Part shown: positions 4,367 to 63,824 of the stretch, one piece after another
How the letters are laid out: every line of letters starts with the position of its first letter
How positions within the stretch are numbered: position 1 is the first letter of the stretch
From: an uncultured Fibrobacterota bacterium
GTDB lineage: Bacteria > Fibrobacterota > CAYVZU01
Length of the DNA stretch: 64,000 bases
NCBI GenBank assembly: GCA_964455935.1
Contig: CAYVZU010000001.1
Location: 55,142 to 119,141, forward strand
Direction: 5' to 3'
The notes under the pieces: generated by a model
Seen by the model: the letters and a program-made list of their open reading frames with translations, nothing else
Told to the model about the DNA's origin: nothing
Databases searched by the model: none
Position numbers and translations under genes: made by a program

Positions 4367-6444
4367 GAACGACCTTTTCGGTGAAGAGCGAAAAACGCTA
4401 GGAATATACACAACACCGCCAAGGCCGACAATGCCAGCCACTCATCCCCGGGCACAAGTCCCAGCGTGACCTTTTTGGACGCGGTGAAATTCCAACGGCT
4501 TACCGTGAACCGCGAAACAAACCGGCTTACGGCCGGCATCTCGTCAAAAGGGGCGACCGCGCCGGCAAAAAGGATCTGCGGAATCAACGCCAACGGAAGT
4601 GCTGCCAGGGCCCGTTCGGTTCGTTGCGCGATCGCCGAGATCGCCAGACCCATGGCGGTTGCGGCCAAGGCAACAATGGAAAATGAGAGCAAATGAAAAC
4701 GCGCGGCTCCTTCCAGAGGAATCGCGGTGTTGACCAGAAAAACGAGAATCCCGGTCTGGACCAGCGCCAGGACCGCGAGAAAAGTAAATTTGGCCAGAAG
4801 GTAAGGGCCGGGCCGCAGGCCCATGCGCCGCTCGCGCTGGAGCAAGCCGTGCTCTTTGCAGATCTCTTTGACGGAATTAATGCAGCCAAACCAGATGCAG
4901 CTGATTCCCATGCAAAAAAGAAGGGGCCACTGGTTCGTGTTACGGCCAAATACAAGAAAGATCAATCCCCCGATAAGCGGCGCCTGGCCCAGCGTTAATA
5001 GCCAATGGGCGGCATCGCGCCGCAGAAGAATAGCTGTTCGGTGGCACAGCAAGGCAAGCTGGCCAAGACCCGAAGGGCGCCGCGATAGCCGGCATTCCGC
5101 GGCCCGGTCTTTTTCGGCGAAAAGCTCTTCACGGTTCTTGAGCCGCGATTCCACATAGTCGCGGTGCAGCGGCGAAGTCCGGAATCGTTCAGACAGGGTT
5201 GCGGAGGACTCGCCCTCGATTTGGCGATAAATGTCGGCGATTTCTCTGCAACCGAAATAGTCGCCCAGGACAGCGGGAGGGCCAAAAAAAATCAGCCGGC
5301 CCTGGTGCATGAGGCCGACCAGGTCGAATTCCTGCACATGGCTTAGCCGGTGCGTGGAAACAAGGACCGTTCGCCGGCGGTCCGAAATCCGGCGCAGAAG
5401 CTCCATTGTCTTCGCTTCCAATACCGGGTCCAGATTGGCCGTGGGCTCGTCCAGGGCAAGTACCCGGGGGTCGGCGGCCATTTCCATGGCCAGACTCACC
5501 CGCTTGCGTTGGCCGCCGCTAAGAAAACGAACCGGCCGGCCTGCGCACTCGTTGAGTTCAAGGACATCCAGCAGACTCTGCGATTTTCGCGCAATGTCGG
5601 TCTCCACCGGCAGGCGAAGCGCGTTAAGGGCAACCGCGAAGCGGACGGTCTCGCGGGGGGTGAGCAGTTCGGCCAGCATGTCGTCCTGGGGAACAAATCC
5701 CGAAAGCGCGCGATTGGGCCGCACGTCAAGGGGCACGGCATCGTAATAAACGCAACCGGCCGCGGGCGCCTCGAGACCGGCCAAAATCCGCAGGAGACTG
5801 GTTTTCCCTGCGCCACTGGGGCCCAGCAATCCCACAAATTCGCCCGGTTTTACGGCCAGGCTCACGGGGTGCAGAATGGGTCTGGTTCCCGCCCGTTTTT
5901 CGATCCCGGTCACGTCGATCCGCATCCCCGAGAAAGGGAGGCGCTGAAGATCGCCATTCCAGACGGCAAACTGTTCCGGACCAATCGAAAGCCGGTCGCC
6001 GTCGGCCAGTCTGGCTTTTCGTTTCCGTCCCGCCGGACCGGCAAACGATGTGTTGGAATGAGCCGTCTGAAGATACAGCGTAATGCCGCCGCTGTGCGGC
6101 TCCACCCGCTGTTGAAAAAGCGTGGAGGCCTGTGCAGGGCGATCCGCATCCGAGGCCTCCTGAATCAGCAGGATAAGAACGGCGTCGGCCGACGCGACCT
6201 CCAGCTCCTGGGTGCCGACTTGAATGCGGTCTCCGGCTGCAATCCGGTCCGCGGCAGCGGGGCGTCCGTTTAGAAACGTGCCGAACGTGCTGTTCTCATC
6301 CAGAAGAAAAAGGCCTGCGTCGCGGCGTTCGATGCAGGCATGACGGCGTGAGCAAAGGGGGTTGTTCAAAACGAGATCATTCTCGAGGGCCCTGCCAATG
6401 CGCAAGGGCCGCTCCTGGGTGGGAGAAAAAGTGCGGGTGATCAC
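4357..6444 (-). CDS. FHA-FHA-ABC ATPase-ABC-2 permease fusion transporter (Rv1747-like)
   Basis: Two N-terminal FHA-like segments. Walker A GPSGAGKTS, signature LSGGQRKRV, Walker B LALDEPT. C-terminal multi-TM ABC-2 domain. Overlaps the kinase start by ~10 nt. Confidence 0.8.
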   Translation of the reverse strand: MITRTFSPTQERPLRIGRALENDLVLNNPLCSRRHACIERRDAGLFLLDENSTFGTFLNGRPAAADRIAAGDRIQVGTQELEVASADAVLILLIQEASDADRPAQASTLFQQRVEPHSGGITLYLQTAHSNTSFAGPAGRKRKARLADGDRLSIGPEQFAVWNGDLQRLPFSGMRIDVTGIEKRAGTRPILHPVSLAVKPGEFVGLLGPSGAGKTSLLRILAGLEAPAAGCVYYDAVPLDVRPNRALSGFVPQDDMLAELLTPRETVRFAVALNALRLPVETDIARKSQSLLDVLELNECAGRPVRFLSGGQRKRVSLAMEMAADPRVLALDEPTANLDPVLEAKTMELLRRISDRRRTVLVSTHRLSHVQEFDLVGLMHQGRLIFFGPPAVLGDYFGCREIADIYRQIEGESSATLSERFRTSPLHRDYVESRLKNREELFAEKDRAAECRLSRRPSGLGQLALLCHRTAILLRRDAAHWLLTLGQAPLIGGLIFLVFGRNTNQWPLLFCMGISCIWFGCINSVKEICKEHGLLQRERRMGLRPGPYLLAKFTFLAVLALVQTGILVFLVNTAIPLEGAARFHLLSFSIVALAATAMGLAISAIAQRTERALAALPLALIPQILFAGAVAPFDEMPAVSRFVSRFTVSRWNFTASKKVTLGLVPGDEWLALSALAVLCIFLAFFALHRKGRSCN

Positions 6445-7022
6445 GTGTTGGGGGAGTCCGGCTTCATCCGCAGGATGGATAGAATTTGGCGCAGCGCTTC
6501 CTCGAAGTTGTCGTTGATAACCGTGTGCTCATAGCGGCCTTGGGTTTGGGCGAATTCGATTTCTTTTCGCGCGTTGTCCAAGCGAAGGGCGATGGCCTGT
6601 TCCGTCTCGGTGCCGCGTTTTCGAAGCCTGCGTTCCAGCTCTGCCAGCGAGGGCGGAAGGATCAGAATGCCGATATTCTGCGGAAAGACCTTGTCGAATT
6701 TTTTCTTGCCGTACACATCGATGTCGAGGACAATGTCATTGCCCTTCTCGATGGTTTCGCTCACCGGCCGGATTGGTGTACCATAGAAATTGGCATGCAC
6801 CTCCTGCCATTCGGCCAATTCGTTGTTTGCGATGAGAGAGGCAAACTCCTGTTTTGAAACAAAACGATAGTCCCTGCCCTCGCGCTCATTGGGCCGCGGC
6901 TTGCGCGTGGTGGCGGAAATCGAGAAAATGAGTTCGGGAATGGACTCCAACACGCGCTTGAGGAGTGTTGTCTTGCCCGCGCCCGAGGGCGCGCTGATGA
7001 CGAAGATTCGGCCTTTGTTCAT
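6441..7022 (-). CDS. gmk: guanylate kinase
   Basis: P-loop SAPSGAGKTTL and SISATTRKPRPNEREGRDYRFVS, matching the GMP-binding region of guanylate kinases. Confidence 0.9.
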   Translation of the reverse strand: MNKGRIFVISAPSGAGKTTLLKRVLESIPELIFSISATTRKPRPNEREGRDYRFVSKQEFASLIANNELAEWQEVHANFYGTPIRPVSETIEKGNDIVLDIDVYGKKKFDKVFPQNIGILILPPSLAELERRLRKRGTETEQAIALRLDNARKEIEFAQTQGRYEHTVINDNFEEALRQILSILRMKPDSPNT

Positions 7023-7050
7023 AAGGATAAAAATAACTGCTCAGGTCCCC

Positions 7051-7182
7051 ATGAAACCACAGAGAGAAATCCGAGTTGAGAATGAGAACACAGAGGGAAA
7101 TCTTTCCGGCGCAGCGCGCCGGAAAAGCTTTTTCTCCCCTCTGTGTTCTCTTCTCCGACCTCTGTGTTACTCTGTGGTTTCA
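7051..7182. repeat. ~130-nt compound imperfect palindrome with reiterated ACACAGAG/CTCTGTGT motifs and a central CCGGCGC-AGC-GCGCCGG core
   Basis: GAAACCACAGAG...GAGAACACAGAGGG...TTTCCGGCGCAGCGCGCCGGAAA...CCCTCTGTGTTCTC...CTCTGTGTTACTCTGTGGTTTC. Outer 12-bp arms and inner 14-bp arms pair. Lies immediately 5' of the gmk start on the minus strand. Confidence 0.5.
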
Positions 7183-7233
7183 AGATTCTTTTCAGGAGAC
7201 GTGAGTAGTTATGAATCAAATTGGGTTTACATT

Positions 7234-7605
7234 TCACAATTTTCCCCGGTGCGCCTGAAGCATGCCCTTGAGTACCTGCGCGATCAACTTGTAGGCGGCA
7301 TCGGAATTCCCGGCCCGGGCCGGCGCTTTGGGTTTTCGCATCGCGGTCAGTTTCTGCAGGGCGCCCGCGGTTCGAAGCAGTCGGGTCCGGGAATCGGAAG
7401 GCACCTTTTTGGGAAGGACGCTAATCGGGCCGGAGTTGGGGTTGGTCCGGTAACGGCATTGCATTTGGCAGTTTTGGTGCTCCCAGCACTTGCGCGTTGC
7501 CGCGATGCGGCCCGACCGCCTTCCTTCATAGTACATGCAGCGCAAACATACCCGGGACACATTGCCCGTGCTGTCCTGGCGGGATTCCCAGCACTCCATA
7601 AGCAC
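7234..7605 (-). CDS. hypothetical small Cys-rich protein
   Basis: ORF with six Cys (C..C...C.....C...C) and a GTG start. No recognisable family and no SD. May be non-coding. Confidence 0.2.
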   Translation of the reverse strand: MLMECWESRQDSTGNVSRVCLRCMYYEGRRSGRIAATRKCWEHQNCQMQCRYRTNPNSGPISVLPKKVPSDSRTRLLRTAGALQKLTAMRKPKAPARAGNSDAAYKLIAQVLKGMLQAHRGKL

Positions 7606-52964: not shown

Positions 52965-53459
52965 ATGAATATCGATCACATTATCGAGACTCTCAACCAA
53001 CATGCGGTAAAATACCTACTGATTGGGGGGGTCCACTTTCTCTTGCGCCACAAACCGCAACTGACCTTTGATGTTGATGTCTGGGTGGACGACAAGCCGG
53101 ACAACTTGTTGCACTGCGAGAAGGCGCTGATTTCCTTGAAAGCTGAATGGGGCTCAACCGACCAGAATTGGGGCCCTGTTTCTGGGAAAAATCCGGGCTG
53201 GTTAGGGTCGCAATCCGTGTTCTGCCTTACAAGTCCATTTGGCGCAATTGATATTTTTCTCAGCGTGGCGGGTCTGAAAAGTTGGGCCGAATGCAATAAA
53301 CATGCGGTCGCCGGCAAGACGGCGAGTGGAGTTCCCTATAGGGGAATCTCCGATGAGGATTTGCTTCAAAGCCAATACGCGCTGGACAAGAAGGACCAAC
53401 ACCCCGAACGCATCTCCACCCTGGAATCCATTTTGAAAGATAAGAGCAGGAAGAAATAG
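52965..53459 (+). CDS. minimal nucleotidyltransferase (MNT/Pol-beta superfamily)-like protein
   Basis: YLLIGGVHFLLRHKPQLTFDVDVWVD fits the G[GS]-x(9-13)-DxD nucleotidyltransferase signature. AGGGAG SD upstream. Confidence 0.45.
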   Translation: MNIDHIIETLNQHAVKYLLIGGVHFLLRHKPQLTFDVDVWVDDKPDNLLHCEKALISLKAEWGSTDQNWGPVSGKNPGWLGSQSVFCLTSPFGAIDIFLSVAGLKSWAECNKHAVAGKTASGVPYRGISDEDLLQSQYALDKKDQHPERISTLESILKDKSRKK

Positions 53460-53463
53460 GACA

Positions 53464-53661
53464 ATGGCCAACCTAAAGGAAAAAGAAGAAGCCAAGCGAG
53501 ATTCGCATTGGGATCCATTGACGAAATGGAATCTGTTGCAGGAAACCATAGCTTGGGCGGAAGCGCAATCAACCGTCAAACGCAATACCCGCGAAAACCG
53601 CCTGGCCGAGCAGGCCAGAAAAAGATCTTCCGGCCGAACTTCTTTATCGCCTCACAATTGA
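53464..53661 (+). CDS. 65-aa charged helical protein cotranscribed with the nucleotidyltransferase
   Basis: Lies 4 nt downstream of the nucleotidyltransferase stop. No recognised motif. Confidence 0.3.
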   Translation: MANLKEKEEAKRDSHWDPLTKWNLLQETIAWAEAQSTVKRNTRENRLAEQARKRSSGRTSLSPHN

Positions 53662-53717
53662 CGGCCGGACTGTTTTTGAATTCGCAAAACCATCATCCCA
53701 AATTCAAAACAGGTCAG

Positions 53718-54074
53718 CTATTTCTGGTTTTTTGATTTTCTGGGGACACCCAGAATGACAACCGAAACCGTATCGGTATTCTTGTATATGACCGCAATAT
53801 GGATGGTATCCTTTTCATTCACGCGCAGGTTCAAGCTCTCGAAAGGAGTTATGAAGCTGCAGATGTTCCCCTTCCATCCGCATTCAACCGGCAATTGGTA
53901 GTCTTTCCCGCCGGGTTTGAAGAACATCTTTTCGTATTCCCCAGTGGCATTCACCTGAACATATCCGTCTGCATGGGAATGGATTATGATTGGCTCGTTT
54001 TTATTTGTGGGAGCGCCCAGTGCCGTGCCCGATATCTGCAACAAGGCAAAAAGGAGAAAAGTCGTCGATTTCAT
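53718..54074 (-). CDS. small secreted hypothetical protein
   Basis: Signal peptide MKSTTFLLFALLQISGTALGA. Low-GC island. Confidence 0.4.
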   Translation of the reverse strand: MKSTTFLLFALLQISGTALGAPTNKNEPIIIHSHADGYVQVNATGEYEKMFFKPGGKDYQLPVECGWKGNICSFITPFESLNLRVNEKDTIHIAVIYKNTDTVSVVILGVPRKSKNQK

Positions 54075-54321
54075 GAAAACCACCTTCCAGGGAATCTCAA
54101 TTCTGCCCGGTATTGACAAAGCATTCCTTCACGCCAGTCCTGGCCAATGCAAGCGGCAAATAGTATCCCATACGGGAAAATAGAAAAGAGCGCATGGGCT
54201 CATCCCCAACAAACGCATTTTCCGTGTCAATCAATCGAATAAATCTTCATTGGTTTGGCAGGTTCAGAAGGCCAAATTCCGCAAGGAGCCGCCGCGCTTC
54301 CTTTCCAAATAATGAATGGGA

Positions 54322-55092
54322 CTAATAGAACATCGCCATAGACGGAAACCGGGAAATGACGTGACTGTTCTTGGCTGGTTCGTATTCGCATACAATTCTG
54401 CCATTATGACGGACCCGAAAAACAATCGGGGTTTTCAGGACTTGGGTCAGATGATAAAAAGTCAAGAGTTCCGCCAAATCATCGGCCCAATTCAGGCTTG
54501 CATAAAGGGAAGGAAAGCAGGTTTTCCGGAGTTCGTCATAAACACTTGGAGCATCCGCGATATTCAGCTTGGGACCGCCCCCGAGGCCGTAGAAGGTGAT
54601 TCTGGACCGTCCGGCAAAATCGTACCGATCCACTGGTCGGTTGTAGGATTTCCAGATCCGCATCGTCGCTTCGGAAGAACCGCTACGACCCAGTCCGGCT
54701 TTCTCGCATGCGGGTTCCACATATGGAGTAATTGGCGCCACAAAGTCCACCACATGAGTCATTTCATGGAGGAGAATGTAGAGAAATCCGGAAAAGGATG
54801 AATTGCAGTAAACTGCAAGCTGGAAACTGGAGTCGCTGTGGGCAAAGCAGGATTGCTCTTTTCTGGTAAGTACGTCGGACAAGCTGCCCTTTAAGACAGA
54901 AGGATTAAAGAGCAGATAGCAATAGACCTGGTGCGTGCTATCCAGAACGAAATCCGTAAGCCCGCTTCCCATGAAGTTATAAAAATATGCCAACAATTCT
55001 CTTCTCCAATATTTCCCGGTGCACTTTGGGCAGATAAGCCATGCAGTCAGCAAACAGATCCATGTCCGCTCGTGTGGGCCGATACGGGGCAT
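54322..55092 (-). CDS. HExxH zinc-metallopeptidase-like hypothetical protein
   Basis: LLHEMTHVVDF motif. Low-GC island. The N-terminus may continue in another frame (see the next feature). Confidence 0.45.
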   Translation of the reverse strand: MPRIGPHERTWICLLTAWLICPKCTGKYWRRELLAYFYNFMGSGLTDFVLDSTHQVYCYLLFNPSVLKGSLSDVLTRKEQSCFAHSDSSFQLAVYCNSSFSGFLYILLHEMTHVVDFVAPITPYVEPACEKAGLGRSGSSEATMRIWKSYNRPVDRYDFAGRSRITFYGLGGGPKLNIADAPSVYDELRKTCFPSLYASLNWADDLAELLTFYHLTQVLKTPIVFRVRHNGRIVCEYEPAKNSHVISRFPSMAMFY

Positions 55093-55279
55093 AATCCGGC
55101 CGGCTGTCCATGGCGCGGGTCTCGCTTAAGAGAAAGCCGGGAGCCTCCCTGATCCGGGAAAGCACAGAAGAATCCGGCTGGAAATCATAGCTTTCCAGCC
55201 TCCTGACCGGCGACTGGCGCAGGCGGTCCAGCGGGCCAATAGATGGGCTGCAGGCGCTTTGGACGAGGGCAACAAGCAT
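54977..55279 (-). CDS. lipoprotein-signal ORF overlapping the HExxH protein out of frame (possible frameshifted N-terminus)
   Basis: MLVALVQSAC is lipobox-like. The 3' 115 nt overlap the 54322..55092 ORF in a different frame. Confidence 0.25.
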   Translation of the reverse strand: MLVALVQSACSPSIGPLDRLRQSPVRRLESYDFQPDSSVLSRIREAPGFLLSETRAMDSRPDYAPYRPTRADMDLFADCMAYLPKVHREILEKRIVGIFL

Positions 55280-55598
55280 GCAACCAAAAAGAAACCGAAT
55301 GATGGAAGGGGAACCTTGTCGGGCCTTGTTCTGCCATTTCGGGTACCTATTGCAGTAAGATCACTCCCATTTGGATCAGCCGAAAAAAAGATACAGCTCA
55401 ATCCATTCAAATAGCCTGCATAATATTCCCTATTCAAGCCGTATTTGCGTGCGATTGCTATTCCTGCGCACTTTGCAAAAGATGAATATGCCGCGAATAC
55501 CGTTCATGAAAACGTGAAGCGTTTTGTATCCTGGCGCTCGGAGCCAAACCAAGCCGCGGTTTTTGATAAAGCTAGGCCGTGGGAATCGCCGGGACGGA

Positions 55599-55901
55599 TC
55601 AGTTCCTATAAAAAAGCGGGTAGCCCTTTGGGTTTTCAATACTATCGGTGTGCAGGTCTATATCCAACTGAGGCCAATGCAGATGTGAATGGCCAAGGAG
55701 TTTCACATCCAGAATAGAGGAAACCGTGGCATCCTTGAACCAGGGGAACTCATCATAGGGCAGAAAGTGCTCATGCGCGCGCACCACGAAATTGCAGTCC
55801 CCCAAAAGCCTTCGTATTTTAATAGACTTCCTTTTTGCAGCAACTTGATCCAAAGGAGTTGGCCAATGCCGCCGTCGACTAAACCCATCCGGAAGCGCCA
55901 A
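55599..55901 (-). CDS. DUF2442-family small protein
   Basis: C-terminal PWFKDATVSSILDVKLLGHSHLHWPQLDIDLHTDSI matches the DUF2442 core. The 5' end is uncertain. Confidence 0.5.
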   Translation of the reverse strand: MALPDGFSRRRHWPTPLDQVAAKRKSIKIRRLLGDCNFVVRAHEHFLPYDEFPWFKDATVSSILDVKLLGHSHLHWPQLDIDLHTDSIENPKGYPLFYRN

Positions 55902-56255
55902 GTGAAGCTTGCCAAGGCAACCCTATCGCACACTCGCAAACCTGAAGAAATTCCTGCTGGCCAAATTTCAGGAAGAAGCACCGGTCTGCGTTGGCGCAGG
56001 GCCATGTTCCATCCTAATGGGCCGCTCTTTGAGGCGGGCGCCGCCTTCTTGCGCGAGCTGGGTGTGCTTGCGCATACGGACCAACAGTCCGGTTCCTTGC
56101 CGGCCCGATCATTCATCGAGAAAGACCCCAAAACCGGTGGCACGTATTTGAAAATTCCCATGCCAAAGCCTGACGTTCTGGCAAACCTATTTCGAACAGC
56201 CGTTTTTCTGCCGGAAGGATTGCGGCAAGCGTTTGGATCCGGCGCCGCCCGATGA
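55866..56255 (+). CDS. 129-aa basic hypothetical protein translationally coupled to jetA
   Basis: Perfect SD AAAGGAG 7 nt before the ATG at 55866. Stop overlaps the jetA start as ATGA, and jetA has no SD of its own. No recognised motif. Confidence 0.5.
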   Translation: MPPSTKPIRKRQVKLAKATLSHTRKPEEIPAGQISGRSTGLRWRRAMFHPNGPLFEAGAAFLRELGVLAHTDQQSGSLPARSFIEKDPKTGGTYLKIPMPKPDVLANLFRTAVFLPEGLRQAFGSGAAR

Positions 56256-57694
56256 ATCTCGACTTTGCCGCTCTCAGCGCCTTGCGAAAGAATCATCCGG
56301 CCTGGCGGCTGTTGATGGCGGATCATGCGCCGCTGATTGCCAGTTTCTTACACCGGGTATTCATCGCGCCCAATGTGCGAACAATGGCGCAGGGCGAGTT
56401 GGTATCGAAGCTGGAAGACGAACTGTTTCAATTGCGCGCAAGCCATGGCGCGGAAGCGTTCCCGCGGGATGCCGTCAAATACCTGGACGAATGGGCACAG
56501 AACGACAAAGGCTGGCTGCGCAAATTCTATCCGCCCAATTCGGACGAGGCCCATTTCGACCTTACCCCGGCAACGGAAAAGGCAATTGCCTGGATCGAGA
56601 CTCTCACGGCCCGCGCCTTTGTGGGGACGGAATCCCGTCTCATGACGGTGTTTGTTCTGTTGCGCCAGATGGTGGAAGGCGCGGAGACCAACGCGGAAGT
56701 CCGCCTGGCCGAGCTACAGAAGCACAAGACCGAAATTGAACTCGAAATAGAGCGGGTTCGCGCCGGCGACTTGAACTTGCTGGATGAAACCGGTCTTCGC
56801 GACCGTTTTCAGCAAATTGCCGGCACGGCGCGGGAACTGCTGGCCGATTTCCGCGAGGTGGAGCATAATTTCCATCTTCTGGATCAAAGGGTGCGTGAAC
56901 AAATTGCCGTGTGGGAGGGGAAAAAGGGCGAGCTTCTGGAAAATGTATTTGGCGAACGGGACGTAATCGCCGATTCCGACCAAGGGAAAAGTTTTCGCGC
57001 ATTCTGGGATTTTTTAATGTCGCCGTCGCGACAAGAAGAATTGTCGGGCTTACTGGAGCGTGTTTTTGAGTTTGCGGCAATACGGGCCATGACCCCGGAC
57101 ACGCGGTTGAAACGTATTCATTATGACTGGTTGGAGGCAGGCGAACAGACGCAGCGCACGGTGGCCAGGCTTTCGCAACAATTGCGGCGCTATCTTGATG
57201 ATCAGGTTTGGCTTGAAAACCGGCGAATCATGCAGGTGCTGAGGACCATCGAGAGCAAGGCCATTGCCGCGCGCGAAGCCGTGCCCGCCGGACCCTTCAT
57301 GGAAATCGATGAGCCGGCCCCGGCTTTCAATCTGCCCATGGAACGGCCGCTCTTCTCGCCGGCCTTGAAGCCGGTGATCGCGAGTCAGGTTCTCGAGGGA
57401 GGCGGCGAGAGCGTCTTGACGGACGCCCTTTTTAATCAAGTCATGATCGACAAGGCGGAATTGGCTGGCCGGATTCGGAAGGCCCTGCAAAACCGCCGGC
57501 AAATTACCTTGGCGGAATTACTGGCGGAACACCCGCTCGCATTGGGCCTGTCGGAATTAATCGCGTATTTGTCATTGGCCGGAGAGGACAGGAAGGCTGT
57601 GTTCGATGAAAGCCGGATTGAAGTGGTAGGGTGGAATGACGAAAACGGCAATCCCCGACAGGCCCGGTTGCCCCGGATTATATTCAACAGGTAG
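56252..57694 (+). CDS. jetA: Wadjet JetA (DUF3375, MukF/kleisin-like)
   Basis: 480 aa. Position and size fit the four-gene Wadjet arrangement. Coiled-coil-rich with a winged-helix-like terminus. Confidence 0.75.
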   Translation: MNLDFAALSALRKNHPAWRLLMADHAPLIASFLHRVFIAPNVRTMAQGELVSKLEDELFQLRASHGAEAFPRDAVKYLDEWAQNDKGWLRKFYPPNSDEAHFDLTPATEKAIAWIETLTARAFVGTESRLMTVFVLLRQMVEGAETNAEVRLAELQKHKTEIELEIERVRAGDLNLLDETGLRDRFQQIAGTARELLADFREVEHNFHLLDQRVREQIAVWEGKKGELLENVFGERDVIADSDQGKSFRAFWDFLMSPSRQEELSGLLERVFEFAAIRAMTPDTRLKRIHYDWLEAGEQTQRTVARLSQQLRRYLDDQVWLENRRIMQVLRTIESKAIAAREAVPAGPFMEIDEPAPAFNLPMERPLFSPALKPVIASQVLEGGGESVLTDALFNQVMIDKAELAGRIRKALQNRRQITLAELLAEHPLALGLSELIAYLSLAGEDRKAVFDESRIEVVGWNDENGNPRQARLPRIIFNR

Positions 57695-57698
57695 TCCC

Positions 57699-58307
57699 AT
57701 GGAACAGCCAAACGCCGCAACCGATGCTTTTCCATGCGTGATGATCGCTCTTATGAAAGGCGTTGTGTATGGAGAGGCGGACGCGGGTCTTTGGCAGAAT
57801 CTGCTGAACCTGCAAAGCCGGGTGCGCGACTATGTTTCGGTCCTGGGATTGGAGCTGATGCTCGACGAGCCCGAGGGATATGCCTGGCTGCGCTCAAGGC
57901 CGGTCGCCGAAGGCAAAGATCCGCTGCCGCGGCTGATTCCCCGAAGACAGCTCTCATACCCGGTGAGCCTTCTGATCGCCCTGCTTCGCAAAAAGCTGGC
58001 CGAATCCGATGCGGGAGGCGGAGAGACGCGGCTGATTCTTAGCCGCGATGCGGTGGTGGAAATGCTCCGGGTGTTTTTTCCGGCCGGAACCAACGAAGCC
58101 CGCCTTGTGGATCAGATCGATGCGCACCTCAATAAGATCGCGGAACTTGGATTCATTCGCCGCTTGCGCGGCCGCGAGGACCTCATCGAGGTACGCCGGA
58201 TTCTTAAAGCCTTCGTGGATGCCCAGTGGCTGGCCGATTTCGATGTGCGCCTGCAAACCTATTGCGAAAAAACTGGCGACTTCGATGAAAAGGGGAAGCA
58301 GGACTAA
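57699..58307 (+). CDS. jetB: Wadjet JetB (DUF4194, MukE-like)
   Basis: ~200 aa acidic protein placed between JetA and the SMC-like JetC. Confidence 0.7.
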
Positions 58308-61300
58308 TGCAGGAGCAGCTCGATTTCACCACAAGCGACCACCAGGCGGGTTTCCGCCTGCATCGGTTGGAGGTGTACAACTGGGGGACGTTCCACCACC
58401 GGGTCTGGTCTCTTTGCCTTGATGGCGCGAACTGCCTTCTTACCGGTGATATCGGGTCCGGAAAGTCCACCCTGGTGGACGCAATCACGACGCTGCTGGT
58501 CCCAGCCCACCGAGTGGCTTACAACAAGGCGGCCGGGGCCGAGGCAAAAGAACGGACCCTGCGATCCTATGTTCTGGGCTATTATAAAACAGAGCGCAGC
58601 GAAACCGGACAAGCGGCCAAACCGGTGGCCTTGCGCGACCATAACAGCTATTCGGTGATCCTTGGCGTTTTCCGCAACATTGGATACGATCAGGAAATAA
58701 CCCTGGCCCAGGTTTTCTGGTGTAAGGACCTACAGGGCCAGCCGGCCCGCTTCTTCCTGGTATCGGATGCGGCCCTGACAATCGCAAAGGACTTCGCCGA
58801 TTTCGGCAATGACATCAACCACCTCCGCAAAAAATTGCGCGTAAATCGTTCGATCGAAATCTTCGATGGTTTTTCGCCCTATGCCGCAGCGTTTCGCCGG
58901 CGTTTTGGTATCGTGAACGATCAGGCCCTGGATCTGTTCCATCAAACCGTGTCCCTGAAATCGGTGGGCAATCTTACGGATTTTGTTCGCCAGCATATGC
59001 TTGAAGCCTTTGAGATCGAGCCGCGCATCGAGGCATTGATTGCCCATTTCGATGATTTAAGCCGGGCACATGAAGCCGTTCTCAAAGCAAAGAATCAGAT
59101 TTCCCTGCTCTTGCCCCTGGTGGAGAACTGCGAGAAGCACCGCGACATTGGGCGACAACGGGAGATATGGCGCAATTGCCGCGATGGATTGCGCGCCTAT
59201 TTCGCTTCGCTAAAGGCCGGATTGCTGGAAAAGCGGATGGATCATTTGGAACAAGAGCAGATCCGCCGGTCCTCCAAGATCGAAGCGCTTACAGAGGTCC
59301 ATCGTGCACTGAATGCAGACCGGGACAGTTTGAAACAGGCCATTGCGGAAAATGGCGGGGACCGCCTGGAGCGGATTAAGGCGGAGATCGAGGCCAGGAC
59401 CGGGGAGAAGGAGAAGCGCCGGAAGCGGGCCGAGCGGTATGACGAACTGGCGGGGCAGCTTGAAATGCTCTCCGCCCAAAACCTGGAAGCATTTGCCTCA
59501 AACCAAGCAGCCTTACGGGCAAATCTCCGCGTGAGTGAAACAGCGGAAACCAATTTGCAAAACGCCTTAACCGAGCTTTCGGCGGACATGAAAAACCTCC
59601 GGCAGCAACACGCGAACCTGACCGCGGAAATTGAATCGCTGCGGCAGCGCCAAAGCAACATCAGCGATGCGCAAATTCGAATTCGCCGCCTTCTTTGCCG
59701 GGACCTGAATCTGACGGAAGAGACCATGCCGTTTGTCGGCGAGTTGATCAAGGTGCGCGAGGAAGAGGTTGCTTGGGAAGGCGCAACCGAGCGGCTATTG
59801 CATAATTTTGGACTTTCTCTTCTGGTCCCGGACAGCCACTACTCCAAAGTCGCCGAATGGGTTGAACACACCCATTTGAATGCGCGGCTCGTGTATTACC
59901 GGGTGCGGCGGGAATCAATGGGCGATCAGCCTGAATTGCATCCCGATTCCCTGGTTCGCAAGCTGGCCATTAAGCCGGATTCCGAATTCTACGGCTGGCT
60001 CGAACGGGAGCTGGCGCGGCGCTTTGATTATGCCTGCTGCGAAAGTATCGAGCGATTCCGCCGGGAAAAGGAGGCCGTTACGCGTGCCGGACAGATTAAA
60101 TCCGGCGGCCAGAGACACGAGAAAGACGACCGTCATCGCATCGAAGACCGCAGCCGGTTCGTGCTGGGCTGGAACAATCAGGCCAAGATCGCCGCTCTGG
60201 CCGGGCAGGCCGGACATCAGGAAAAACGAATCCAGGATTTCGCCGGGGAGATCGTCGTCCGCCAAACCGAACTGGAACGAGTAAAAGAACGTCGAATTCA
60301 AATGGCGCGATTGGGCGAGTTCCCCGATTTTGGCGAATTGGAGTGGCAGCCTCTTGCCGTAATAATTGCCGATCTGGAACGGGAAAGGCAGGCATTAGAA
60401 GCGGCCTCGGACATATTAATGACCCTTTCGACGAAGCTGCAGGCCGTCGAGGAAAAAATCGGGGTCGCACAACAGGAGCTTGATGCCGAGAAAGAGGCTC
60501 GGGCCAAAAACGAGGTGAAGCAGGAACAGGCCCGGCAGATGCTGCAATCCTGTCGGACCGTAATCGAATCCATGCCAATCGCGGATCGTGAGTCCTTGTT
60601 TGCCATGCTCGAACCTCTGAGAACGGAGGCGTTGGAGGAGCATACGCTTGGCGTGGAATCCTGCGACAACCGTGAACGGGACATGCGGGACTGGCTGCAA
60701 AGAAAGATCGATAACGAGGACAGGCGGATTCGCGAGCTGGAAGAGCGCATTGTCAAAGCCATGGAGGATTACCGGCATCAGTATCCGCTGGAGACGCAGG
60801 AGGTGGATGCCGCTCTTGGCTCGGCAACCGAGTTCATGGCCATGCTTCAGCGCCTGCGGGCCGACGATCTCCCCCGTTTCGAGCAGCGATTTAAGGAATT
60901 GCTCAACGAGAATACAATCCGGGAAGTGGCGAACTTTCAGTCGCAGCTTGCGCGGGAGCGCCAGACCATCCGTGAACGCATCGAACGGATCAACAAATCT
61001 CTCAAGGCGATCGAATACAATCCCAGGCGGTTCATTGCCCTCGAAGCCCAGGCCAACCAGGATCCCGAGGTGCGGGATTTTCAGGAAAATCTGCGCGCTT
61101 GCACCGAGGGAGCGCTCACCGGCTCCGAAGATGAGCAATATTCCGAGACAAAGTTCCTGCGGGTAAAGTCTATGATCGAACGCTTTCGGGGCCGCGGCGG
61201 CAGCAGTGAACTGGACAAACGATGGACCGCCAAAGTAACGGATGTACGAAACTGGTTCGTATTCGCCGCCTCGGAACGATGGATCGAGGACGGGACCGAA

Positions 61301-61672
61301 TACGAGCATTACACGGATTCCAGTGGCAAGTCCGGCGGTCAAAAAGAGAAGCTGGCCTACACGGTCCTGGCCGCCAGCCTGGCCTACCAATTCGGGCTTG
61401 AATGGGGCGAAACCCGGTCCCGCACTTTCCGTTTCGTGGCTATTGACGAGGCCTTTGGCCGCGGGTCCGATGAATCGGCCCGTTTTGGCCTCAACCTCTT
61501 CCAGCGTCTTAACCTGCAATTGCTGATCGTCACCCCTCTACAAAAAATCCATATCATCGAGCCTTTTGTGGCCGGCGTGGGATTTGTTCACAGCGAATTG
61601 GGCCGTGAATCCATGCTGCGCAATCTCACCATCGAACAATACCGGGCCGAGCGCGAAGCCCGGCGCGCATGA
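58307..61672 (+). CDS. jetC: Wadjet JetC (SMC/MukB-like ABC ATPase)
   Basis: N-terminal Walker [10 protein letters not shown]...[17 protein letters not shown], long coiled coils, and C-terminal signature/Walker [15 protein letters not shown]...QLLIVTPLQ. 1121 aa. Confidence 0.85.
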
Positions 61673-62847
61673 ACATGTGGACGCGCGTTATGGATATCCG
61701 CCTTCGCCTGCGCAGGATGTGGGACAAAGGCGTCTTCCTGCGAACGCGGATATCAGGGGAGGAATTGTTTCCCCTTCGCCTGATCTTAAAACACCCAACC
61801 CCGCGTGAACTGGCGGAACGCTTCGCGCAAGCACAAGAATGGATTGCCGCCATTGGCGTTGGCGATAAATCCGAAACCGGAAGCGGCTATGAAGTGGAAT
61901 GGCGGGAAATCAACCATCGACAATTGGGCCGAAACCGGCTTGCCGTGGCTGTACAATTCGAATCCGAGAGCGATGTTCTGGCATTTTTGGGCAAACAAAA
62001 GCAGGCCGATGCTTTCTCACGTCTCGTGGAAAATGCCAGCCGTTCATGTCCGGAGATAATGCCCTGGCTAGCCCGCTATCCCCTGCGCGCCTTGGAGCAT
62101 CTTTCCCAATGGCCACAGCATATGGCGGTATTGGATTGGTTGCGCCGAAACCCACGACCCGGGATTTATATCCGCCAAATGGAAATTCCGGACGTGGATA
62201 CAAAATTCATCGAAACCAACAGAAAGCTACTCTGTGAGTTGCTGGACATGGTTTTGCCGGAATCCTCCATCGACCGCAATGCGGAGGCCGGAGCGTTTGA
62301 GCGGCGTTATGGGTTCAAAGAGAAACCGGCTTTAATCCGTTTTCGTCTTCTGGATCCGGATCTCTATTTAAAGGGCCTTTCGGATCTGGCCATCCCGGCC
62401 GAACAATTTGCGCGATTACATCTCCCTGTCCAGCAGGTATTTATCATGGAAAATGAGATCAACGGTCTGGCTTTTCCCGGCCGCAAAAAGAGCTTGGTGA
62501 TTTTCGGGCTTGGCTACGGCCTCGACCGCCTGGCCGCCGCGGAATGGCTGCGCGCGAAGCAAATTTGGTACTGGGGCGACATCGACACTCATGGTTTTGC
62601 CATGCTGGACCAGGTCCGCCACTATTTTCCGGCCACACAATCCTTATTGATGGATCGAGAGACTCTGTTAAAGCACCGGGCTCTCTGGGTAACGGAAAGC
62701 AGCCCAACGCAACGCGAACTGTCCGGATTAACCGAGGCGGAATTGGCGCTCTATAACGACCTGCGGCGGGACCGGCTTGGGCCTCGAATCCGGCTGGAGC
62801 AGGAAAGAATCGATTTCCGCCGGGTAAAATCCGCGCTTGGCGCGTGA
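61669..62847 (+). CDS. jetD: Wadjet JetD (DUF2220, Toprim/topo-VI-like nuclease)
   Basis: C-terminal toprim-like acidic motifs FIMENE and [10 protein letters not shown]. 392 aa. ATGA-coupled to jetC. Confidence 0.85.
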
Positions 62848-63226: not shown

Positions 63227-63589
63227 CTACCTGCGAATTCTTAGCTTTCTGTTTTGGTATGTGCAAAAACATCCTGCAAGCTTGGCGGAATATTTGTTTA
63301 TTATTTTCGAAACCACAGCCACCTTCTCTACCCCGGTTGCCTCATCAAGTCGCAGGAGCAAAACGCCAGCGTGCGTCCGGCCGGAATTATAAACGAGCTC
63401 ACCGAAATCCTTGTCCATTGTGACAACCATCCTGTTTTCCAGGACGGCCAGCCTCAAGATTTCCTCATCGGACATCTTTGCATTAAGTTCCCGGACGGAT
63501 TTTACATCGTATCCCGCCCTTACGAGATACTGCTCGACCCTCAGGCCAACGCCGAGATCCACGAGGAATTTAGCAGGCGAACCATTCAT
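63227..63589 (-). CDS. DUF5615 (PIN-like) putative toxin
   Basis: MNGSPAKFLVDLGVGLRV...LAVLENRMVVTMDKDFGEL is the DUF5615 fold, paired with DUF433. Confidence 0.7.
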   Translation of the reverse strand: MNGSPAKFLVDLGVGLRVEQYLVRAGYDVKSVRELNAKMSDEEILRLAVLENRMVVTMDKDFGELVYNSGRTHAGVLLLRLDEATGVEKVAVVSKIINKYSAKLAGCFCTYQNRKLRIRR

Positions 63590-63590
63590 T

Positions 63591-63824
63591 CTACTTGGCC
63601 ACTTCGAAGACCTGCTCCTCGCTCACCAACTCGGCAGCGTATTGCAGCACGGCCTGGATATCCTCTTTTTCGAGTTCCGGATAATCTTCGAGCAAATCCG
63701 GAACTGGTACGCCATTGGCCAAAGCTTTCAAAATCTGCTCTACGGTGATCCGCAAACCGCGGATGGTGGGTTTGCCAACCATAACCTTCGGGTCGACTGT
63801 GATGCGAGAAAGGAGATCTACCAT
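63591..63824 (-). CDS. DUF433 putative antitoxin
   Basis: VMVGKPTIRGLRITVEQILKALANGVPVPDLLEDYPELEKEDIQAVLQYAAE is the DUF433 core. Its stop is adjacent to the DUF5615 start. Confidence 0.7.
   Translation of the reverse strand: MVDLLSRITVDPKVMVGKPTIRGLRITVEQILKALANGVPVPDLLEDYPELEKEDIQAVLQYAAELVSEEQVFEVAK

Follow-up and report, generated by a model that had tools for sequence, protein, structure and literature searches.

A small open reading frame joined to a type I Wadjet operon in an uncultured Fibrobacterota bacterium is probably an internally deleted SWIM/SNF2 helicase gene

We analysed a stretch of 64,000 nucleotides (nt) from an uncultured Fibrobacterota bacterium (GenBank assembly GCA_964455935.1, contig CAYVZU010000001.1, positions 55,142 to 119,141 of the forward strand), hereafter called the window, and focused on a type I Wadjet operon, jetABCD, and a small open reading frame (ORF) of 129 amino acids (aa) that overlaps its 5' end. 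As judged from sequence comparisons, this small ORF is very probably a SWIM/SNF2 helicase gene that has lost its interior, while its start signals and its proximity to jetA have survived. A preliminary description of the locus had regarded the ORF as an obligatorily co-translated, new fifth subunit of Wadjet; instead, the ORF consists of the fused N- and C-terminal ends of a helicase, and its codon score is far below that of real genes. The relevant features, numbered from the first letter of the window, are as follows.

55852-55858, plus strand: AAAGGAG Shine-Dalgarno (SD) sequence, 7 nt before the ATG at 55866, read directly from the DNA
55866-56255, plus strand: small ORF, 129 aa, with an ATG start and a TGA stop
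55866-56006, plus strand: N-terminal remnant (about residues 1-47), basic leader plus LSHTRKPEEI, assigned with a hidden Markov model (HMM) of helicase N-termini and by Smith-Waterman alignment
56007-56255, plus strand: C-terminal tail remnant (about residues 48-129), assigned with the helicase HMM and phmmer, with the motifs GAAFLxxLG and [FW]IExDxxTGxxYLK[IL]PxPxP

The relationship with helicases is clearest in the C-terminal part. For comparison, 80 loci were fetched around JetA relatives of 60-68% identity, the range of the nearest JetA relatives in the genome collection; here and below, loci are denoted by L and proteins by P, each with a number. When the ORF was compared with these related loci by tblastn, weak matches were obtained in L076 (Ramlibacter sp. 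WS9), L062 (Piscinibacter) and L074 (Rhodocyclaceae), in each case directly in front of jetA. The matching sequence in all three is the C-terminal end of a long ORF (814-942 codons from stop to stop) that encodes an SNF2-family helicase with SNF2-rel_dom and Helicase_C domains. An exhaustive phmmer search of 1.84 billion representatives returned 17 relatives of the 129-aa ORF; each of the 16 that were read represents the C-terminus of an SNF2 helicase or a piece of such a protein, several retaining helicase motif VI. The second-best representative match, P0002, is a large repetitive protein (3046 aa) in which residues 63-94 of the ORF are matched in 15 separate stretches, its repeat being similar to part of the tail.

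The SWIM/SNF2 family is large, containing at least 7992 protein clusters at E <= 1e-50, and its members are annotated as 'DEAD/DEAH box helicase' or 'SNF2-related protein'. We sampled 120 full-length relatives of ~800 aa, from which a family profile of 823 positions was built. The tail module lies at the extreme C-terminus of all 120 proteins, at a median of 2 residues from the end, and the family HMM matches the small ORF at positions 740-813 with an E-value of 1.3e-8 against all six-frame segments of the window. With an HMM of the tail alone the ORF scores 91.8 bits, and tblastn E-values for the tail go down to 6e-15.

The N-terminal part of the ORF also resembles this family. A basic N-terminus with the motif RLSRTRKPxxM..WQxxLRRQFG occurs in 119 of the 120 full-length relatives, and the consensus of the region can also be written M-PST...LSxTRKPEE. 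The N-terminus of the ORF, MPPSTKPIRKRQVKLAKATLSHTRKPEEI, aligns with those of full-length helicases, for example P0158 (MMPSTAPRKPRSKSKAKASQPPEPRLSRTRRPPEL), and its first residues, MPPSTKP..RKR..AKA, align with the very start of such proteins (MMPSTAPRKPRSKSKAKA in P0158). The family motif is partially preserved: KATLSHTRKPEEI is kept, and the WQ..LRRQFG part is degenerate (GLRWRRAMF). When the 1221 six-frame segments of the window were searched with an N-terminus HMM built from 101 helicases, this ORF was the top match (E 0.015, corresponding to a per-target probability near 1e-5), and in Smith-Waterman comparisons with helicase N-termini none of 2000 composition-preserving shuffles reached the observed score.

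The SWIM finger, the SNF2 ATPase lobe and Helicase_C, which together occupy approximately positions 46-739 of the profile, are absent from the ORF, from the region 54000-56400 in any frame, and from the rest of the window. Since the ORF is homologous to the helicase at both ends and the core is absent, two ends of one gene appear to have been joined in frame, with the loss of ~690 codons.

We therefore consider the following course of events. A SWIM/SNF2 helicase gene of ~800 aa would once have been located immediately upstream of jetA, and an internal deletion of about 2.1 kb would have taken away, in place, the SWIM zinc finger together with both helicase lobes (SNF2 ATPase and Helicase_C), leaving the first ~45 codons fused in frame with the last ~80. 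The remnant would thus keep the ribosome-binding site (RBS) and start codon of the helicase and run to its present TGA, which overlaps the jetA ATG as ATGA (56252-56255). The frame is open back to 55689, and 55866 is the only start with an SD sequence; because the first residues of the ORF align with the start of the helicase, AAAGGAG is most simply taken to be the helicase's own RBS. Likewise, the closeness of the ORF to jetA would be inherited, since intact helicase stops lie 7-20 nt from the jetA ATG (see below). The ORF extends 7-10 residues past the aligned tail ends of L076, L062 and L074, which is about the length of the spacer; the original helicase stop was presumably lost, so that the frame would read through the former spacer to the TGA of the ATGA. 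The remnant would be no subunit of Wadjet and is probably functionless in itself; the most that may be expected of its translation is an incidental delivery of ribosomes to the jetA start.

Intact counterparts of the supposed ancestral arrangement exist. On the same strand as jetA, the distance from the helicase stop to the jetA ATG is 9 nt in L076, 9 nt in L074, 20 nt in L062, 8 nt in L047 (where the adjacent helicase is a more distant relative) and 7 nt in L095. SNF2-family helicases are also found within 4 kb upstream of jetA in L016, L027, L009, L017 and L044; among these, relatives detected with the family profile are present in L016 (540 nt away) and in L009 and L017 (divergent), and L027 has the SNF2 core only. 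When the upstream ORFs of the 80 loci were clustered, the SNF2 helicase was the most recurrent neighbour, being found in 9 loci (of about 75) versus 4 for the next cluster, and the helicase-bearing loci fall in several JetA lineages.

Core deletions are also seen in other members of the helicase family, at two unrelated metagenome loci. In L083 (6001-6684), profile positions 6-49 are joined in frame to 637-820 (protein P0006; 9 contigs), and in L088 (5483-6216), which belongs to a metagenome-assembled genome of Acidobacteriota, the match to positions 15-183 passes directly into 750-814 with a change of frame. No Wadjet genes lie near either locus, and L089 and L090 contain frameshifted copies of the SWIM/SNF2 helicase. 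On their sequences, the deletions in L083 and L088 are independent and provide a precedent for the remnant in the window. In both, the ATPase core is lost and both ends are kept, a recurrent pattern.

The coding signal and the predicted structure of the ORF point in the same direction. In a codon log-odds model trained on 35 long ORFs of the window, the small ORF scores 0.003 per codon, compared with 0.238 +/- 0.09 for windows of 129 codons taken from real genes; its score is undercut by only 2% of the real windows and exceeded by 15% of wrong-frame windows. Its GC content at third codon positions (GC3) is 0.58 versus 0.69 for the genes of the window, and a 207-codon antisense ORF spans the same region. 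In an AlphaFold model based on 44 aligned sequences, residues 1-51 are without secondary structure, and the predicted template modelling score (pTM) is 0.32. The tail is modelled as a helix, a beta-hairpin and two helices, with a predicted local distance difference test score (pLDDT) of about 80, and is predicted to be the kind of element that packs on a partner, with no autonomous fold. Together, the low codon score, the GC3, the disordered half and the crowded divergent start described below suggest decay over function.

Several points weigh against an internally deleted helicase gene. First, the N-terminal similarity is short and is significant as a targeted test only (E 0.015-0.05 window-wide), and a comparable chance match to the N-terminus profile occurs at 54600-54728. 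Second, an in-frame fusion, for which the chance is 1 in 3, together with a strong SD sequence and an ATGA overlap, is also expected under selection for a translated product or for coupling, and the frame of the ORF has the best codon score of its six frames. Third, the ORF is carried by one population only (three assemblies, 100% identical). Finally, no close full-length relative of the remnant was found from which the end points of the deletion could be mapped at the DNA level. Note that the competing match at 54600-54728 (plus strand; RLSRMRVPH, E 0.035-0.044) falls in a wrong frame of a minus-strand gene for a 216-aa protein and is itself probably due to chance.

A possible, although rather doubtful, alternative is that the remnant has been exapted as a leader ORF, that is, that it has been kept since its RBS and the ATGA overlap drive translation of an SD-less jetA by coupling, the peptide being irrelevant. 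The layout agrees with this: AAAGGAG is followed after 7 nt by ATG, the ORF ends in the ATGA overlap, no SD-like motif is found within 30 nt upstream of jetA, and the remnant appears to read through the 7-20 nt spacer of intact loci, 7-10 residues past the tail ends. However, a loose SD-like 4-mer precedes jetA in 28 of 79 related loci and none is found in 51 of 79, most of them without a coupled upstream ORF, so that jetA generally needs no coupling. The preliminary description was right that the jetA of the window lacks an SD sequence, but this is not a special property; a jetA without an SD sequence is the norm in related loci, and therefore obligate coupling is not implied. We accordingly rejected the argument for obligate coupling from the missing SD sequence. 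In addition, only 12 nt separate the start of the ORF from that of a divergent DUF2442 gene, and no promoter-like site was found; a scan of 55200-56400 for promoters and terminators detected none.

The first proposal, in which the 129-aa protein would be a true accessory or regulatory subunit and new to Wadjet, appears very improbable. The AAAGGAG sequence, the ORF at 55866-56255 and the ATGA overlap with jetA are all located exactly as first described, and an in-frame ORF with a strong SD sequence and translational coupling is what would be expected of a subunit; the retained tail, conserved in the helicase family and modelled with a pLDDT of about 80, could in principle dock on a partner. 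The ORF is, however, without orthologues. A word-indexed search of 5.8 billion clustered proteins with the 129-aa ORF retrieved itself alone, the identical ORF being present on two short groundwater-metagenome contigs from the same population, and the protein has zero matches to Pfam, PADLOC or NCBIfam profiles. The ORF had been called unannotated, but the gene callers of NCBI, JGI and ENA all report it as a 129-aa protein. Conservation of a small ORF upstream of jetA, on which the preliminary description had made its own proposal depend, was not observed, since none of the 80 related loci has a small ORF resembling the 129-aa protein at that place. The ORFs that end near the jetA start differ between these loci, and include peroxiredoxin-like proteins, PIN toxins, a GNAT protein, a helix-turn-helix antitoxin, SEC-C proteins and spurious GC-rich frames. 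Furthermore, the same tail is found on helicases unrelated to Wadjet, the codon score is poor, and half of the protein is predicted to be disordered.

It is even harder to believe that the product, unconnected with Wadjet, is a free tail-domain protein acting as a dominant-negative form or competitor of a full-length SWIM/SNF2 helicase from another place in the genome. Many tail-only short proteins do exist in metagenomes: a profile search with the tail alignment gave only short proteins, namely 65 matches of 48-154 aa. However, every case examined in its context is a frameshifted, fragmented or deleted helicase gene, and no second helicase copy was found in the 64-kb window. These short metagenome proteins are best read as split or deleted helicase genes, and on the same contexts we rejected a dedicated family of small tail proteins. 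A chance ORF in GC-rich intergenic DNA would agree with the low codon score and the 207-codon antisense ORF, but it is refuted because both ends are significantly homologous, at the protein level, to a single helicase family.

The operon downstream of the internally deleted helicase gene consists of four co-linear genes on one strand in the order A-B-C-D, which overlap or abut each other.

56252-57694, plus strand: jetA, 480 aa, kleisin-like, DUF3375
57699-58307, plus strand: jetB, 202 aa, KITE/MukE-like, DUF4194
58307-61672, plus strand: jetC, 1121 aa, SMC/MukB-like ATPase
61669-62847, plus strand: jetD, 392 aa, CAP plus Toprim nuclease

In Wadjet systems, small circular DNA is sensed by JetABC, which is SMC-like and extrudes loops, and is cut by the Toprim nuclease JetD. 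In the window, the TAG stop of jetA ends at 57694 and is separated by a 4-nt spacer from the jetB start at 57699, jetB and jetC overlap as TAATG at 58307, and jetC and jetD overlap as ATGA at 61669. The preliminary description had identified a complete JetABCD system with proteins of 480, 202, 1121 and 392 aa and had suggested searches against DUF3375, DUF4194 and JetC profiles; all of these match, and Pfam and PADLOC confirm the identification. JetA matches Pfam DUF3375 (E 2e-155) over 468 of its 480 residues and PADLOC JetA1 (E 3.9e-220), and JetB matches DUF4194 (E 5.9e-46), MksE (E 2.3e-19) and JetB1 (E 7.5e-88). JetC has an N-terminal head matching AAA_29 (residues 18-78, E 7.4e-24) and a C-terminal head matching SbcC_Walker_B (residues 976-1066, E 5e-23), and it matches JetC1 over residues 2-1120 with 1606 bits (E 0). 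Its translation shows a Walker motif, the signature SGGQKEKL and the Walker B motif FVAIDEAF, and it has the SMC-like organization of an N-terminal Walker A head, a long coiled coil and a C-terminal Walker B head. JetD matches DUF3322 (E 5.3e-57), JetD_C (E 1e-59) and JetD1 (E 1.6e-143). Because all four proteins match the type I profiles JetA1, JetB1, JetC1 and JetD1 end to end, the region 56252-62847 is, on these profile matches, a complete, canonical type I Wadjet anti-plasmid system. Wadjet has been described as four genes occurring in three types, and all four subunits are needed for plasmid restriction (PMC10586767).

The recurrence of the helicase beside jetA raises the question of how the two are related. 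Between L076 and L062, DNA homology begins at the helicase start and continues into jetABCD, and in this clade the five genes are, on their DNA homology, inherited as a block. Close Wadjet relatives without the helicase have been compared as well; in these pairs (L074 versus L057, with 90-92% DNA identity, and L062 versus L072) homology breaks exactly at the jetA ATG. The family also occurs in unrelated, non-syntenic contexts without Wadjet (L083, L088, L089, L090, L092, L093, L094 and L096), no synteny around the helicase was found in other genomes, and the helicase is no fixed chromosomal landmark. Several of these Wadjet-free contexts have the look of a mobile or defence island, in that they contain an integrase, toxin-antitoxin genes, caspase-like and AAA proteins, or a methyltransferase together with a UvrD-like protein. 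We read the association as co-location in variable islands with occasional co-inheritance. It is rather unlikely, in our estimation, that the SWIM/SNF2 helicase is a facultative fifth gene of a type I Wadjet sub-clade and its functional partner. If it were, the helicase may modulate Wadjet, for example by clearing obstacles or remodelling the target DNA, and the remnant in the window with its conserved tail could be a decayed or minimal survivor of the partnership. Literature searches for a link between Wadjet and SNF2 proteins, or for the bacterial SWIM/SNF2 family, found nothing relevant.

Some further observations were made on these neighbourhoods. In L094 (1-6670) an intact helicase lies beside a caspase-like peptidase, an AAA_5 ATPase and a 1450-aa DUF7379 protein, and in L096 (683-9696) beside an rve integrase, DUF2293, a UvrD-like/ankyrin protein and a D12 methyltransferase; such neighbours hint at a possible role of the helicase itself as an island or defence gene. 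The DNA homology of related Wadjet loci begins at the jetA start codon in L074/L057 and L062/L072, and ~40 nt before it in L016 versus L011. The upstream contexts within these three pairs are unrelated, as if jetABCD were exchanged as a cassette with a sharp 5' boundary. In a different JetA clade (L055, 2841-3989; L056, 2838-3989; L010, 2762-3637), another conserved upstream gene, of ~384 aa and with no Pfam match, stops 8 nt short of jetA; a truncated copy in L032 (3601-3996) seems to be the C-terminal part only. This gene is a second candidate for a clade-specific Wadjet neighbour. In the metagenome locus L095, an insertion of ~2.7 kb (4812-7545) separates jetB from jetC inside the Wadjet operon, and it contains four small genes of 49, 109, 298 and 50 aa with no Pfam matches.

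On the 5' side of the remnant, positions 55599-55853 of the minus strand encode an orphan DUF2442 protein (E 3.7e-11), divergent to the remnant with 12 nt between the called starts; its TTG start at 55853 overlaps AAAGGAG on the other strand, and no DUF4160-type partner is visible upstream of it. The start 12 nt from the ATG of the ORF and the lack of a promoter-like site suggest a rearranged junction. Scans for tRNA genes and repeats gave no integration-site or deletion signature. The stretch 53200-55750 has a lower GC content (47-51% versus 55-60% in jetABCD) and contains four called genes without Pfam matches, and it may be a separate island segment; the 216-aa protein mentioned above (54322-54972, minus strand), which has an HEMTH (HExxH) motif, lies within it. 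On the other side, about 380 nt downstream of jetD, a toxin-antitoxin-type pair of DUF433 (77 aa) and DUF5615 PIN-like (120 aa) proteins is encoded on the minus strand at 63227-63824. With the DUF2442 gene on one side and this pair on the other, the Wadjet operon is therefore flanked on both sides by small toxin-antitoxin-like genes.

As it stands, the locus matters little, since it merely extends the set of type I Wadjet operons by that of a groundwater bacterium. Beyond this, it shows how a well-formed ORF with a strong SD sequence and stop-start coupling can be a gene remnant instead of a new subunit, a useful warning wherever scans flag additional coupled ORFs beside defence systems. Only one lead points forward, namely that an SNF2 helicase recurs as a neighbour of jetA; were this neighbour functional, Wadjet would have its first described accessory factor, which could bear on how a loop-extruding complex copes with DNA-bound obstacles.

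Compared with known systems, the operon shares with type I Wadjet (MksBEFG/EptABCD-like) the same four proteins in the same order, with full-length profile matches, and differs in nothing essential; its sole oddity is the helicase remnant joined on the 5' side. With the SWIM/SNF2 helicases of ~800 aa, the small ORF shares the basic N-terminus with the LSRTRKP motif and the C-terminal tail module, but it is without the CxC...CxH SWIM finger, the SNF2 ATPase lobe and Helicase_C, as would be expected of a gene remnant. As for the defence-associated SNF2 helicases ZorD, DrmD, DpdE and BrxHI, the helicase cores of their PADLOC models are matched by the intact relatives found upstream of jetA, with E-values of 1e-40 to 1e-68. 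However, the generic SNF2 core alone matches, no NCBIfam equivalog cut-off is reached, and the SWIM N-terminus and the tail of the family fall outside the regions that match these models.

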